Origin: Euprymna scolopes
Lineage: Eukaryota
Assembly (NCBI GenBank): GCA_053919585.1
Contig: CM132792.1
Reading direction: 5' to 3' (one strand)
Length of the DNA: 64,000 bases
The position numbers were made by a program, and so were the translations under genes. Positions 1-8,230 of the stretch are shown here, piece after piece; positions within the stretch are counted from its first letter, which is position 1; each line of letters begins with the position of its first letter. The notes under the pieces are model-generated. The model saw only the letters and a list, made by a program, of their open reading frames with translations. It searched no databases and had not been told where the DNA came from.

Positions 1-2
1 TG

Positions 3-773
3 AATCTCTCATGATAGGATGTGTCTCCTAGCGGCTTCGGCTGCAGGGAGACAGGGTAGAAGTACTCGTTAAGGATCCGTTCGTGACACTCAGTCCGACA
101 GGCGAGGGCCGGGAACCGGCCCAGCACCTGTCGTACTGATGTACGCCGCCTGGGTAATACCTAGAAGGTCCACCCTCCCAGGCCTTGCTCTTGGGCTTTC
201 CGGTGGAGTAAGTTTATAGCTTACTGCCCGAGGCGCCCCTACCTGGGAATGCCGACTGGGTTACTCAGGCAATTTTTACAATTGTAGGAGTGCCCCTCCG
301 TTAGGAGAGCCTACTTGTTTCCCACTTTCCAGGCTTGTGCCACATTATGCTGAGGTGGGTAGCAAATAATCTCTACCCCATTATTAATCTCTCATTATGG
401 GATGTGTCTGCTAGCGGTTTCGGCTGCAGGGAGACAGAGTAAATTACTCGTCAAGGATCCGTTTTTTACACTCAGCCCGACAGGTGAGGGGCCGGGAACC
501 GGCCCAGCACCTGTCGGACTGAGGTACGCCGCCTGGGTAATACCTAGGAGGTCCACTCTCCCATGCCTTATCACTGGGCTTTCCGGTGAAGTAAGTTTAT
601 CACTTACTGCCTAAAGCGCCCCGACCGGGGAATGCCGACGGGATTACTCAGGCAATTTTTTCAATTGCAGGAATGCCCCTCCTTTAGGGGACACTGCTGG
701 ATCCCCACTTTCCGGCTTTGTGTCACATTTTGCTGAAGTGGGCAGCAAATAAATCTCTACCCCACTATGAATC
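3..773 (+). repeat. Two head-to-tail copies of a ~383 bp GC-rich, structured unit; the array may extend upstream of the window
   Basis: Unit 1 (3-385) and unit 2 (386-773) align end to end, e.g. gggccgggaaccggcccagcacctgtcg and gccgcctgggtaatacctag in both. Boundaries fall at aatc (3, 386, 770). Confidence 0.92.
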
Positions 774-1439
774 AAAAATATTGCAACATCCCCCCTATTT
801 TTTTTTTATAATTGTGAAGTCCCTTGTGTCAATTCTGCTCAAAAATAAATATCTGTTCTTATATTCAATTATACATAACAAAAATTAGAGTATTTGGATC
901 CTAAAATTTAGCATGTAAAAAGACGCCATTTTAAATTGTGTTTAAATCTCAAACATATGGGTACAGAGGAGACAAATAAAAGAAATTTAACGTATTTTAC
1001 TTTAAAAATGGGTGTGTATGTGAAAAAGAAACATCTTCTAATTTAATTATGCAGTTTTGTTAAAAAGCATACATATAAATAAATACACATAAAAATAAAC
1101 ATACATGCAACATGCACCCGTTTAATGAGAGGGTTTTGTTTGCTTGTTTTTGTTTTTTGTTAATAAAAACAGTGCAAAAATAGGACATATTTGAAAAATA
1201 AGAAAAAAAACTTATGTGCAAAAAAAAAGAAGTCAATTGTAATTTATGCGCGCCTTAAAATAAGCATGCACACTGTATTTGTCGAAAAGAAAATCGAACA
1301 GAAAACGTTTGCAAAAAAAATGATGCAAAAAACTATTTGTCAAAATAAAATTTACAAAGAAAAGGTTTTAAAATTGACTTCTTTTTTATTTTCTTTTTTT
1401 ATTTCAGCAGTAGTATTAGTTAGTATTTTGATGATGTAT

Positions 1440-1640
1440 CTCGATTGATTCATCGTAATAAGTCCTTTGCTTTGAGTAAATTCTATCCCTCCAAACCAGG
1501 ATATTTGCCAAGATCAGTCATTTTGAATCTTTTACTTAATTTGTTATTAACATCGGTCAGCATTATGTCAAAGTTTGATGCGATTAAAATATCATCGACC
1601 CACAAAACCAAAATCAGTATTTTATCGTTTTTGTGTTGGG
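1440..1640 (-). mobile_element. Ty1/copia reverse transcriptase fragment
   Basis: Translation ILILVLWVDDILIAS...LSKRFKMTDLGK matches the copia RT L(Y/W)VDD...F.M.DLG motif. Confidence 0.85.
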
Positions 1641-1870
1641 TCGCAAAGGATAGAATTAGCTGCAAAGGTCTTGGCAGAGAGGTTGACTTTGCTGATGCTG
1701 ACGAGATTACCTCAGACCCATTGATAATAGTTGGGATAGAGCACACGCTTCTGTTCAGGATTCTGTTTGCTATTTGCAAAAACTGGTGGGAGCCAAGCCG
1801 CTGGGCAGTTACTTTGAACTTGATGAACTGAGCATACAACTCTCTTGCGTTCTTTATTGCTTTCTTACAA
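1640..1870 (-). mobile_element. CR1-clade LINE ORF2 linker fragment (between EN and RT)
   Basis: QRLGSHQFLQIANRILNRSVCSIPTIING, then (shifted frame) KVNLSAKTFAANS. Homologous to the QK.GNRDFWKIYNSVVN region of the LINE at ~33525-33680. Confidence 0.7.
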
Positions 1871-2188
1871 TATGTAATTACTAGGACAATAACAAGAGAA
1901 TATTATTTTCATTTTTTGTACTCTCAAGTATATATCAGACAATTTCTCATATGTTTTTTAGATATTGATGCGATTCTCTGTTGATTAACTGTGTCTAACT
2001 GTGTTGGATATATACCCGACAGTCAAAACTATTAAAAGAATATTCTCTTGTCACAGCCATAGTGATTGCCTATTTTGTATTTTTATAATTAAAAACAGGG
2101 CGAGTGAATCGAAATGAAACTATTGTAATAGGCCTAATAAACCACATCTAAGAGAAGTTGTAAATGTAAAAGTTTTCAAATAGAAATA

Positions 2189-2252
2189 CATCTTCTTGAG
2201 AATGATCTGCTTGTGTTCGTTCGCATCTTCTTGAGAATGATCTGCTTGTGTT
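2189..2252. repeat. Short tandem duplication, period ~35 bp
   Basis: catcttcttgagaatgatctgcttgtgtt occurs twice in succession. Confidence 0.9.
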
Positions 2253-4222
2253 TTAGGTAAAAGCGGACGAAATGAAAAAAGACGTATATAAGATTATATA
2301 TCCGAACAATCTAAATATATTCGTTTTGCTGTTATAGAATTTGACACGAACCAAAATAAGAAATTATGTTCAAAAAATAAAAAAAAGATCTCACATGGTA
2401 AGGTTAATCTCATCTATTGTAGTACAAATCAATATACGAGTTAACTGAAAATAACAAACGATGACAACGTTATATTAGGACGAATAATACTATAAAGACG
2501 ATTAGTTCTCTTATTTAATATGTAGTCAACGAAAACGGTTTCGAGTGTTTGATTGTGAAGCCTTTCAGTCCTGGTAAGATATCTGGATACCTGACACAAG
2601 GCAAAATAGACAAAGCAATCAAAATTTGTCGAACAGTCAGACTGACAAAATGAGTGAGTGCTTTTGTTTGAAGATGAAAGAACAATTCATTCACATATGC
2701 AGAAAAATTTAAAACATTACGAACAAGATTTATACATGAATTCAAATTTATTTAATATTAATTAAAAGAAAAACTACCCGAATAAATTCCAAAATAAAAA
2801 AAAAATGTATAATGCTTCGGCGTGAACAGACAAACAGCGTTCTTTTCCATGGTTTCCAAAGACAAAAATGAGTTTATTATTTTAATTACGAATGATTTGA
2901 TAACAATTTGTGCATATGTATTTAAATGAAAACTAACCATAAAACAATAGCAATACATATATATGTACATAATATTAGTATGTATACATAATACTTGTAT
3001 GTATATGTGTGCTTAAAATATTAGTATGCCTGAAGGTATGTTTGTATCTATGCATATAATAGTATATATATATATATATATATTATAATATTAGTATGCA
3101 TATATACATATACATATTATTAGAGTGTATATGCATATATAAAATTAATATATATGCATATAATATATATATGTATATAATATATGTAAATATGTGTTTA
3201 ATGATATGACTAGAAATGTATGTAATTATTTTTGTGTGCAGTTTTAGGGATATACTTTTGGTTTGACCTCACTAAAATAAAGCTAAATTAGATGTGCTGG
3301 GCTTCCCTCGTATATTAGTACATTATATCGAAGGCTTTATTTGTGGATCGGCTCTCATATAGCAAAGTGCTCCCCGGACCCCTAGGGACATCAATCAATC
3401 ACCGCTAGCAAAAGCGGTTACTATGTAGACATATGAAGTCTAGCATATAAAAGATCACTCATCTTTACAGTACCATTCCCATACTCGACGCTTAAGTTCT
3501 AAATAAAAACAAGACGGTTGCATCTTAAGAACGGTCATCGTATATCAGAGTTATTATTTGTAATAGAATAAAAGAATATGCATCATTGATTTTAAAGATT
3601 TTGTTTTTTTCCTTGGTTTTATTACACTATACCATGGGTAATATAAGTATTAATTATCAAACTGATACAAAACGGATTCTAACACATGACATAGTACTTT
3701 CAATCAGGCAACAATGTTTCACGTTTTCTGTTATTCCATTTCCGTTTATGACAACTATTTTCATTACTAATTTTAAACATCATTCAGCCAAAGAATTCTA
3801 GACAAAGTCAGATCGAGTTTTTTTCTTTTTTTTATCTATATGAGTTAACATTGGATTTTTACAATAATTTCAAAAACTAATTATTATGGAAAGTATTGCT
3901 TGAATGAAACTTCAAGACGTCTAAATTATCATTAGTAATTAATCGTAGTTTTTTTTTGCATTGACAATTGATGGTACGCGGAATGGTTTTATAAAAACAA
4001 TTAATGATAAAACAAACTACACACGTATTTCCGAAAAAAACAGACACCATCAGAATAGAGGTGAACGTGATGTATAATTAATCAGTTGGATGAGATAATA
4101 TTTTAAGCATATATTGAATAATAATCTGTTGAATTGAAATTGTCATAAATCCTAATTTAACTTGTAAATTATATTATCTTGTAAGTACAAATATATTCAC
4201 TTCCCTACTCTGACGTTGTAGA

Positions 4223-4270
<48 letters not shown>

Positions 4271-4296
4271 TTTACCTTGCACTTTACGAATGCTTA

Positions 4297-4346
<50 letters not shown>

Positions 4347-4347
<1 letters not shown>

Positions 4348-5250
4348 TAGCTGTACCCTGGAACGCGTTGCTGTGGCTCAAATTGGCGCAATGGGAAAAG
4401 TTCCAAAATGAGAAAAAGCATGTTTCTTATAGGTTTAATTTTCCATTTTGCATAGGTACACAGTTTTTGTTGTTCCATTTTCTTAGCTGATATAGAGATT
4501 TTCCGGTTTGGTGACTCTTGAATATGTAACATAAATTGTCCATGTGAAAAAACAGTCAGTGTGTAACTGTAAGGCCCACAATTGTAAAAATTGTTCCCTG
4601 TGCTTTGTTGATGGTTATTGCAAATGACAATTAAATTGGAAAGTGCATTTTCCTAAAGTGTAATAATGTATTCGGTGGAATCATAGGAATGCGTGGAATG
4701 AAGATATATTCATCTGTGAAAGGTCCTGTTAAGATTGTTGTTTCTATGATAATGTTTGTTATTTTTTTTTTTACTGTAAGCTATGTGCCATTGCAAAGCT
4801 TGGATTGGTTTATATTTCACAACATGATAATTAGCCACGCAAATCCTGCAAGGATCGACCAAGAGCCTCAAGTGATTGTTTGCGTACCATTGTGCATTCA
4901 TCCTAAATAATAAGTTTGCATTTCTGCAATATTTTCCCCATATTGAATGTTTTGGAGATGTTTAACATGAGGTTTTTGAAAAATTGAATGTTTTAAAGTA
5001 GAATAAATAATTCTTCTACTTGGCAGCAAGGTCGCAGGTATTCCTCATGCAGCAAGGGCTAAGGCTATGTCACTTTTTACCAAATGACTGCCAAAATCAA
5101 TTTAATTAGTAAGGTTTTACCAGTTACTTTTGGTGCTGTTCAAGGTAGCAGTAATTTCCAAATAACTTCTATTCTCACAGTCAAATTACAGTCAATTAGG
5201 TGACTAAAATATGATTTATCCATGTTTTGACAATGCCTTATTCACTGTAA
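4347..5250 (-). mobile_element. Helitron 3' remnant with decayed PIF1-type helicase C-terminus
   Basis: Minus-strand frames give KLCNGT, IPRIPMIP, FPI*LSFAITINKAQG and CFSHGQ. The element ends in gcaacgcgttccagggtacagCTAG (CTAG at 4347-4350), a Helitron-type 3' end. Confidence 0.85.
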
Positions 5251-5259
5251 TTAAATTAG

Positions 5260-5585
5260 GAGACTAAAATAGGATGAGGGATTAGAGATGGGCAGATAGA
5301 GAGGAAGATATATAGATAGAAAAGAGAAAGTGAGAGGAAAATAGAGAAAGAGAAGGAGATAGAGAGATAACGGGATTGATAGATAAACAGAGAGAGGGTG
5401 AGAGTTAGAAACAGAGAGGGATGAGACAGAGGAAAGGAGAGAGATAGAGGGAGTTAGAGAGAGAAAGGGGCTCAAAGAGAGATGGAGAGGGTGATATAGA
5501 GAGAAAGATAAATTGAGAGAGGGAGAGGAGAGATTGATAGAGAGATATTAAGAGAGGAACAGAGAGGGGGAGAGAAACAGAAGGT
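5260..5585. repeat. Degenerate (GA)n microsatellite
   Basis: Purine-rich gagaga/gataga tract. It explains spurious ORFs 5251..5475 and 5405..5599. Confidence 0.9.
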
Positions 5586-6179
5586 GAACTACACTTCACC
5601 GTTTTTTTCCTCGTTCAGTAGAGGAGAAATATTTCGAGACTGAGGCAATTTTAATGTTTTGTTATTATCCAGAGTACCCCTTTTTTGGGAGGGGGTAGAT
5701 TTTCCTCACATTAGAAACCGACCGGGTTATCTGTACTTTCACTTAACAAATTAATAAAAGAAAAACATATTGTAAAATTTGAATTTAACATGAAAATACT
5801 TTTGTAAAAAATAGCACAATAACATAAGTGCATAAGTGCCACTTTAAGTACTCCTTGGGCGTTGAGTTCCATGGCGAGCAGCATAATTATTTAATGGTCG
5901 CTCCCTTTAGGCCCCCTAGTCAAGGCTAATGCATGCGCACGTAACATTTTTTTTATTTACTGACGTTGGCTTAGTAACTAAACGATTTATAGATAATTTC
6001 GTAACCCTTAAACGCATACCGGAAGATTTAAATTGGTTCATTATTGTTGTAATGAAAAAAAGTCTCATTCAACACAAAACCAAAACCACATATTAATGAT
6101 AAATGATTTATTATTCTATTAATTGAAATTTACTAATTTTTCAATAAAAAAAAGTAAAAAAAAGTTAATAAAAAATAGT

Positions 6180-8230
6180 TGCTTATGTGCGCATAAAAAA
6201 CTTGTTTTTTTTGTTTTGTTTTTAGACTAGGTCCACCTTATAATCACCCACCACCTCCTCATCTTATGAACAGCTTCCAGAATAAACGCCACTTTTGGAG
6301 GGGGGCTATTTGCAAAATTTAACTGATATTTGTTGTCAGCATACCCACCCGAAAATACTATTAAAAAACAAGGAGGGGTTCAGTGCCCGTGGCAGAGAAG
6401 TAGATTTATTTATCAATAAAAGTTGCGGAGAAGTAAATTCATTTATCAATAAAAGTCGGCACTTAAAAAAGAAAATTGTGGAGGTGGGCCTAAAAAGTAA
6501 AAAAAATTGTTTATCCGCGCATGTAAATTAAAAAATATTTGTAAAAGTGAGAAGTTATCAGTAAATGATTTAGTTTTTTTTTAAATTTATTTATTTATTT
6601 TTTTTTACATTAGGTCCACCTCCACAAATGTTAAGAACAGCTTTCAGAATAAACACCCTCAACCTCTCCATGTTTACAACGGATTTTGGTAATAAAAAAT
6701 TTAAAAAAAGGTCGATAAAAGTCGTCATTTAAAAAGAAATTTAAAATAAAATGTTTGTAAAAGTGAGAAATTATTAATACATGTTTAATAACATTTTTCA
6801 GTGCTAATGCAGAGAGTGATCCGCGCTATTTTTTAAATCGTATTTCCACGTTTAATTAAAGTTTTTTGATATGTTATTTTTTATTCAATTGCAAGGTTAA
6901 AGTAGAGAATAGGTGCAAAACACCCTCTCCTCCCCATGTATTTTTTTTTGTCAAATAAATAAATTTCATGCAATTTTTGTAATAAATAATAGATAGCAAC
7001 TTCGTTAATTTTACGACTCGCCCCAGCATATTATAAACAGTAAACACCCTAACTTCCACATGTTAAAACGGCTTTTGGAATAAACACCCCCAACCTCCCC
7101 ATATTAAGAACGGCTTTCGAGGTTTATGGAAGGGCGTTTTTTTAACATGTGGAGGTTAGGGTTTTTATAATACGTTGAGGCATGTCTTAAAAATGAAACA
7201 GTTTAGAAAAAGTTGAAACAAACTTTTTATGTAAACAATACCGTGAAAAGAAACTAAACAATTAAAACATAATGTTTCATGAGTGAAAAGCCTTAACATA
7301 AATTTCGAAATTCAAACATTGGTAAGTACATAAATAAATTTAAAATTTTAAAATATGGGATTATTTTTTTGTGCTAATGCAGAGAGTGATCCGCGCTATT
7401 TATTTTTAATCGTATTTCCACGTTTAATTAAAGTTTTATGATATGTTTTTTTATTCAACTGTAAGGTTAAAGTACAGAATAGGTACAAAACACCCTCCCT
7501 TCCTCATCTTAAGAATGGCTTTTTAAATAATAACGGTATTATTTCAGCACGGATCACTCTCTGTATGAGTAAGTTTATTCGCAGTAATGGCTTACGAAAA
7601 TATATATATTTATTTTATTTTATATTTTAATAATTCGCGAGGTAAATTTATTTTAATAGCATAAACACATACCTCGACTCTAAAGATGGGTTAGGTGAAA
7701 GTACAGTACTCATGCAGAGAGTGATCCGTGTTGTAATAATAACGTTAATGTTTAAAAAGCCATTCTTAACATGGGGAGGGGAGGCTGTATTTTAACCTGA
7801 CAATTGGATAAAAAACATAATAAAACTAATTAAACCTGGAAATACGATTTAAAAAATAGCGCGAACAAAAAGAAAACTGTACTTTACCAACCAATCTTAT
7901 ATCGACATAAAAACTCAAAAAGCAAGCGACAAACTTTTTTTTGGCCTCATATAATAAATAAAAAATGTGTAAATTAAAAAATTTGGAAGATAAACAAATG
8001 AATTATGTTTTTTTTTGTTTTGTTTTTTTACTTATCGAGTTAAGAGAAAATGAAATCTTTCGTCAATTCGTGGCTGTGAAATTAATCGAATCGGAAGTTC
8101 AGTTTTATCAACAAAGCAGATTCGCACTAACGGTTTAAAAATATATTTATTTTATTTAATATTTTAATAATTCGCGAGGTAAATTTATTTGATTAACATA
8201 AAAACATACCTTGACTCTAAAGATGGTTTG
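6180..8230. repeat. Complex of direct and inverted subrepeats (foldback- or MITE-like)
   Basis: gtgctaatgcagagagtgatccgcgctatt block at ~6800 and ~7370, with an inverted copy at ~7710-7865. aagaac.gcttt..gaataaacaccc subrepeats at ~6265, 6632 and 7065. 7600-7690 is duplicated at 8140-8225. Confidence 0.7.

Follow-up and report, generated by a model that had tools for sequence, protein, structure and literature searches.

We have found that the tandem repeat at the start of the window (the whole 64,000-nucleotide stretch of Euprymna scolopes analysed here) is, with a probability of about 0.8, a non-coding SINE-like retroposon, i.e., a 383-nt unit that inserts at a fixed site in the LTR of a Copia element, is likely transcribed from the antisense promoter of that LTR and is likely pasted by a Tx1-like LINE. 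Tandem Repeats Finder gave a period of 383, 2.0 copies and 86% matches at positions 1-773, and the GC content was 0.533 in the repeat vs 0.297 at 789-3000, bearing out a preliminary description of this DNA that had seen a tandem ~383-nt repeat forming a GC-rich island in AT-rich surroundings. That description had counted two head-to-tail copies and started the unit at position 3. Both copies are in the window, but they are units 2 and 3 (1-758) of an array of three ~383-nt units, the first of which lies just upstream of the window, and the true boundary falls between T and ACCCC, at 374/375 and 758/759. The features of the array and of its host are the following:

1..374, plus strand: second of the three units (unit 2), which begins ~10 bases upstream of the window; boundary set by the off-target copies (see below)
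321..374, plus strand: 3' tail of unit 2, with a small GGC..GCC hairpin, the covarying terminal hairpin (346-366) and an AAAT-rich end, common to the partner LINE and to U2-headed SINEs
375..758, plus strand: unit 3, 86% identical to unit 2
704..758, plus strand: 3' tail of unit 3, including AATAAA
759..773, plus strand: downstream copy of the target site, i.e., an LTR-derived target-site duplication (TSD), as read from the empty sites
759..788, minus strand: start of the Copia 3' LTR (30 bases, at its retro-sense 5' end)
789..808, minus strand: Copia polypurine tract, by its sequence and an identical flank in L006, L008 and L017
809..1318, minus strand: Copia 3' internal region, ~80-84% like other copies
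1421..1641, minus strand: Copia reverse-transcriptase fragment (Pfam RVT_2, E 2.6e-6, under the curated cut-off)

A decayed Ty1/Copia element hosts the array in its 3' LTR, with gag-pol running in the opposite direction. The flanks of the best 30 unit copies shared ~300-360 nt on their upstream side and a short end downstream, and longer stretches revealed a Ty1/Copia element on the opposite strand, with gag-pol pieces, a polypurine tract by one LTR and a primer-binding site by the other, so that LTRs, both priming sites, gag-pol pieces and an RVT_2 domain were all found. The primer-binding site is presumably of the half initiator tRNA type, as in Drosophila copia. Around the reverse-transcriptase fragment the provirus is deleted and broken, and at 1660-1850 a fragment resembling an unrelated LINE frame (also in L190) splits the remnant. 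The LTR itself contains a 64-bp minisatellite (L001:771-1131), with ~20 copies in L007, and looks bidirectional, a CCAAT-like box being placed between two TATA-like boxes, of which the retro-sense one was judged by eye only. In L035 (oriented 1274-6489) the Copia copy contains another, nested LTR element, whose 174-bp LTRs are identical and which has gag and RT frames of its own.

The unit is short, dispersed and present in high copy number, as SINEs are. At first look the 5.9 Gb genome gave 4491 candidate copies, and the 23-nt tail motif had 1210 exact matches genome-wide (control 0); motifs and variants were counted in a set of 124 non-redundant units drawn from 347 raw hits. The 3' ends read ...AAATATCT or ...AAATCTCT directly before the target, without a poly(A) tail, and AATAAA or ATTAAA was located within the final 30 nt in 109 of the 124.

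Several observations indicate that the unit is cargo of the LTR. Exact empty LTR sites numbered 82 (control 0). When 30 LTRs were anchored by their promoter, 25 were empty (three of these have one flank in common), four had units, the query being one of them, and one had a LINE. Besides, the two LTRs of a provirus carried discordant cargo in four cases (C18, C19, C12b and L191), listed here together with two other proviruses:

C18: one LTR empty, the other with a LINE and two units
C19: one unit vs a LINE and one unit
C12b: two units vs a LINE
L191: one unit vs a LINE and units
C9: both LTRs empty
C10b: one LTR empty, the other rearranged

Both subfamilies of units were present in both types of LTR, whose respective Copia internal regions are only ~70% alike: type A had 30 C-G, 25 T-A and three other units, and type B had 10 C-G and 15 T-A (41 of the 124 units were unassigned). 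Within a subfamily units are 90-92% alike, and neighbours in an array may diverge by up to 18% or belong to different subfamilies. Promoter-proximal units were not clearly younger (17 vs 10 arrays, not significant). We also considered a MITE, and rejected it because the apparent terminal inverted repeat falls within the duplicated target.

At 40 loci anchored by the tail (regular expression, chromosome order), target-like sequence followed the tail in 32 and the LTR promoter was found upstream in 29. The latter number is what would be expected if the unit were native to the Copia LTR, as a tandemly variable segment with no means of spread beyond the LTR itself and DNA duplication, and in the same direction point some long near-identical arrays, of at least 21 and at least 35 units with 99% identity (L157; L158-L159), each beginning at an LTR promoter. 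However, most LTRs are empty, LTR pairs differ in their cargo, adjacent units are as divergent as described above, and TSD-flanked monomers outside any LTR contradict it, which leaves it as the least probable of the readings considered here. The variants shared along the long arrays are periodic, with a period of 2 or 3, which favours an expansion at the DNA level, though this periodicity is possibly an assembly effect. A rolling-circle origin for the arrays was not favoured.

Insertion by target-primed reverse transcription is well supported by the copies outside the LTR. We searched for tails without the target after them, a pattern that fixes the first three target bases, and obtained 29 loci. 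A direct repeat bordered both ends in 19, reaching at least 12 bp in 16 (15 independent, L263 and L286 having common flanks and being counted as one), and no duplication was seen in the other 10. All these copies had the identical 3' end, while many were 5'-truncated, and the monomers were colinear, not permuted. TSD, fixed 3' end and 5' truncation are again SINE features. The head was kept in 11 copies, and all 11 start within about five bases of the initiator-like A of the LTR, frequently at a microhomology with the target; four extra bases were seen in one of them, and a partial doubling of the head in two. None of the 11 has LTR sequence from upstream of the initiator A, an indication that a Pol II promoter is borrowed; another locus, L177, which retains a few bases resembling sequence 5' of the initiator, is ambiguous.

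The insertion site itself is located at an initiator-like motif, and in 79 of 86 LTRs, picked by their initiator and CCAAT-like motifs, a TATA box begins 31 nt upstream (four of the 86 lack a TATA), with spacers that are wholly different between the two LTR types. The internal A/B box promoter of classical Pol III SINEs was not found in the 124 units: no B box on either strand, and an A-box pattern, without a B box, on two plus and 101 minus strands. From these motifs, the unit is likely transcribed by Pol II from the antisense TATA/initiator of the Copia LTR. Four read runs (oligo-dT, polyA or single-cell libraries; 10-18 million records each) gave 589, 482, 132 and 545 reads on a unit, few and in both orientations, with no pile-up of RNA starts or ends at the initiator or the tail. 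In run X22, whose adaptor we take to be a template-switch oligo, loose ends were examined as start sites and rejected; they coincide with GGG/CCC matches on either strand, and we attribute them to strand invasion. An old, ~69%-identical copy of the unit in L226 (1250-1720) lies under many polyA reads, probably within a host transcript, and a U2-headed relic is found 600 bp upstream of it.

As for the enzyme, two LINEs that appear to be Tx1-like use the same LTR. LINE-B (L191) is ~6.1 kb long, with an ORF1 carrying a weak zinc-knuckle (zf-CCHC) and a frameshifted ORF2 coding for endonuclease (Exo_endo_phos, E 8e-17) and reverse transcriptase (RVT_1, E 5e-29), for which the best match among solved structures (PDB) was L1 ORF2p. 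Its anatomy, i.e., an APE endonuclease with RT, a zinc-knuckle ORF1 and a sequence-specific target, suggests a Tx1-like element. Its tail is similar to that of the unit (E 1.4e-4), and all 30 sampled LINE-B tails ended at the junction of the unit: 11 into the LTR end, seven into a unit and 12 into another LINE-B. Copies are 97-99% alike, i.e., younger than most units, and young tandem trains were detected, with 3' ends at ~6.1-kb spacing (C4:149974226-150005084 and C32:60192132-60204618). The head of LINE-A (L036, L032/L121, L122) is of U2 type (Rfam U2, E 9.7e-6), and the head hairpin of the unit is present in this LINE too. LINE-A was also in this LTR locus in 30 of 30 cases, its tails standing before a unit (24), the LTR end (four) or another LINE (two), with its junction ~7 nt further on. 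Since LINE-B shares both the 3' tail and the exact insertion site of the unit and the junction of LINE-A is displaced, LINE-B is the better candidate and the likely mobiliser, a partner chosen by tail and site only.

It could also be that target-primed insertion is right but the RNA comes from another source, such as read-through from host genes or arrays of U2-headed SINEs, or that another LINE mobilises it, the LTR being just a preferred target. The absence of a visible start in the reads, the decayed copy within the transcribed locus L226, the units found inside U2-headed SINE arrays (L127, L171) and the constant presence of LINE-A in the LTR would all be consistent with this. Nevertheless, the start of all intact-head off-target copies at the LTR initiator and a TATA spacing that is fixed across LTR types argue against another source of RNA, and the LINE-B junction, being exactly that of the unit, argues against another LINE, so we regard this version as unlikely.

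The preliminary description had proposed a structured plus-strand RNA in which nearly the whole unit pairs, and this is well reflected in our results. Units 2 and 3 fold beyond shuffles (z -4.8 and -5.9), and so do the reverse strands (-4.1 and -6.2), so z by itself gives no strand. The default alifold under-called pairs because the copies are decayed; the family structure was therefore obtained with RIBOSUM scoring, over 71 units. The main elements are:

377..401, plus strand: head hairpin CCCAT..ATGGG at the junction, whose 5' half is the regenerated target site (60 head variants)
21..52, plus strand: first stem-loop, with a UUCG loop; possibly a remodelled U2 stem-loop I (alignment not significant)
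89..140, plus strand: long helix with GGGCCGG/CCGGCCC cap; pair 97/132 compensatory (G-C 32, A-T 28, G-T 6 of 71)
207..225, plus strand: hairpin; pair 209/223 compensatory (T-A 47, C-G 21 of 71), separating the two subfamilies

The family fold also has the helix at 149-165, and thus retains the helices named before at 21-52, 89-140, 149-165 and 207-225; the cccactt/ggtggg helix, also named, appeared in single-copy folds, but part of it goes in the family fold to the covarying hairpin at 346-366, in which three pairs showed double changes. Double changes amount to only about five independent events. The 60 head variants paired better than controls with swapped halves (mean -9.8 vs -7.5 kcal/mol). 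Among the 124 units, pairing was kept in 19 of 29 paired-column variants common to at least eight copies vs 28 of 189 singletons under the plus-strand model (the other 10 shared variants break a pair), and in 16 of 26 vs 30 of 171 under the minus-strand model. The alifold energy was -219 for plus vs -209 for minus, single-copy energies were lower for plus in 62 of 71 units, and two common variants (37 and 53 copies) make G-U on the plus strand and a mismatch on the minus, the same G-U bias that had been described from the window. Taken together, the compensatory changes and the strand-biased variants support the view that the helices form in a plus-strand RNA, as would be the case in an RNA-mediated element. 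The interior helices may, as a guess, keep a promoterless Pol II transcript compact and stable.

The same description had placed the unit near the animal non-LTR retrozymes, a proposal that, by its own account, would be refuted by a match to a known LTR, a LINE UTR or a satellite; an association with an LTR and a LINE UTR is what we have, with the unit in a Copia LTR and a LINE-type 3' tail. Retrozymes are tandem repeats of 150-450 bp in the available text of PMC7229834, and the unit fits in this range. Under such a scheme multimers would be cleaved by an unrecognised ribozyme into circular RNA, copied by rolling-circle reverse transcription. Like retrozymes (available text of PMC7229834), the unit has tandem monomers of a few hundred bp, from dimers to long multimers (the long near-identical arrays described above), structured RNA and larger TSDs; in contrast, it lacks a hammerhead, its GC is 53% vs below 50%, and it has fixed ends, a LINE tail and site-specific insertion. 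The type I hammerhead was absent from all 124 units on either strand with 0-1 mismatch, the junction included, as had been noticed for the canonical core in the window; twister and pistol patterns gave at most one hit among the 124, and an Rfam search of window positions 1-3000 and ten loci, a check already proposed, matched no ribozyme, tRNA or snRNA family on the unit. With a loose HDV-like descriptor we obtained hits on 32 of 124 plus strands, two of 124 minus strands and eight of 60 shuffles, but these are rich in G-U pairs, do not agree with one another on P1 and overlap with the terminal hairpin that covaries. Reads over the head-to-tail junction, likewise put forward as a check, do exist, 2-3 per form in the oligo-dT/polyA libraries, but their heads vary as in the genomic arrays, which explain them. 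Scattered truncation points, colinear monomers and the periodic variants typical of DNA-level expansion are also against this scheme, which we find very improbable; insertion of the linear-SINE type accounts for the data better. Nothing found shows self-cutting or circular RNA, the libraries being oligo-dT/polyA only.

Regarding the ancestry of the unit, its 3'-terminal 110 nt have 70% identity with a ~200-nt family of U2-headed SINEs (E 6e-10), members of a superfamily for which a 26-nt U2-like head (one mismatch allowed; control 0) gave 35,123 matches. These SINEs (L228-L257, L171) fall into several families of ~200 nt, which use their own U2-like heads as insertion targets; a UUCG loop is present in stem-loop I of six of 30 such heads. 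A U2 origin of the head of the unit itself is suggestive by eye but was not significant in head alignments (p 0.003-0.37 in one set, and one of 90 comparisons at p<=0.05 in another), and Rfam gave no U2 match on the 383-nt unit.

The closest known system is that of SINEU-3 and the Tx1-Mar LINEs, inserted in Mariner-N4_AMi of crocodilians (Kojima, 2015; available text of PMC4494074). As described there for SINEU-3, the unit is short, lacks a Pol III promoter, has as target another transposon, to which it is antisense, shares this target with Tx1 LINEs, some U2-headed, and forms tandem insertions that sandwich a TSD. Unlike SINEU-3 in that text, it is targeted to an initiator, with TATA at -31, in a Copia LTR, its 5' end is mapped by off-target copies and its host is an invertebrate; unlike SINEU-1, for which no such LINE was found according to the same text, it has a LINE with a common 3' tail. 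SINEU elements also differ from it in their poly(A) tail and in that its head is a covarying target-derived hairpin with no recognisable U1 or U2 piece. The CCCATCAG core of the SINEU-3 TSD in PMC4494074 is like the type-B LTR target, which hints at a related endonuclease specificity. The available text leaves the transcription of SINEU-type elements open, suggesting that it is driven by the flanks, and mentions two Tx1 families that prefer LTR retrotransposons. It also describes Keno, a Tx1-clade LINE that targets U2; similarly, LINE-A and sibling SINEs have U2 5' heads (Rfam U2, E 9.7e-6 and 1.1e-6) with the same tail architecture, but the sampled LINE-A and LINE-B were in the LTR (30 of 30 each), as the unit is, and not in U2 genes.

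Two other systems are worth comparing. Tx1D of Xenopus has internal ~400-bp repeats. Tx1L in Tx1D, named in the available text of PMC4494074, is likewise a Tx1 LINE at a fixed site in another transposon, although its host is a DNA transposon. The Cassandra, Helenus and Ajax TRIMs have small-RNA-related sequence in their LTRs, for which the available text of PMC10886601 proposes an origin by SINE insertion. The unit resembles them in being such a sequence within an LTR; unlike them, it is optional cargo in the LTR of an autonomous-type Copia, lacks a Pol III promoter, and probably receives its promoter from the LTR instead of supplying one. The literature covered contained no report of this unit or of any SINE with an LTR start site as its target; Repbase, Dfam, subscription papers and the supplements of PMC4494074 were outside this scope and may hold prior annotation.

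The retroposon reading can be put as a cycle. Pol II would start at the initiator-like A just 5' of the insertion point, giving an RNA that begins with target sequence and thus folds into the head hairpin. The RNA would end at or just beyond the AATAAA-containing tail, and the LINE endonuclease/RT would bind the common two-hairpin tail, nick between T and ACCCC and reverse-transcribe. On insertion ~12-19 bp are duplicated and the site is restored, which lets units, LINEs and other SINEs stack in tandem; some arrays may later expand at the DNA level. A broader proposal, to which we give somewhat better than even odds, is that the antisense TATA/initiator of the LTR acts as an integron-like expression site, at which at least two LINE families and the unit nick a few bases at most from the start, regenerating it and being read out. 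The unit would then derive from SINEs that targeted U2 genes, with the U2 promoter swapped for that of the LTR and the U2 head for a covarying target-derived hairpin, and the off-target copies would record the 5' end of its RNA.

We conclude that the unit is a promoterless, LINE-dependent short retroposon located at the start site of an antisense LTR promoter, the partner and the use of the promoter being likely. One lesson is that tandem, highly structured repeats of a few hundred bases are not necessarily retrozymes. For promoterless elements of the SINEU type a candidate promoter becomes visible: a TATA stands at fixed distance, insertion takes place at an initiator, and the 5' ends of off-target copies stop there; if true, these ends would be direct sequence evidence on how such elements are transcribed. 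The arrangement is a three-tier parasitism, of a SINE on a LINE on an LTR element, in which the landing site regenerates itself and the LINE is very young. This makes it a natural system in which to study site-specific insertion and the way Tx1-like enzymes recognise tails.
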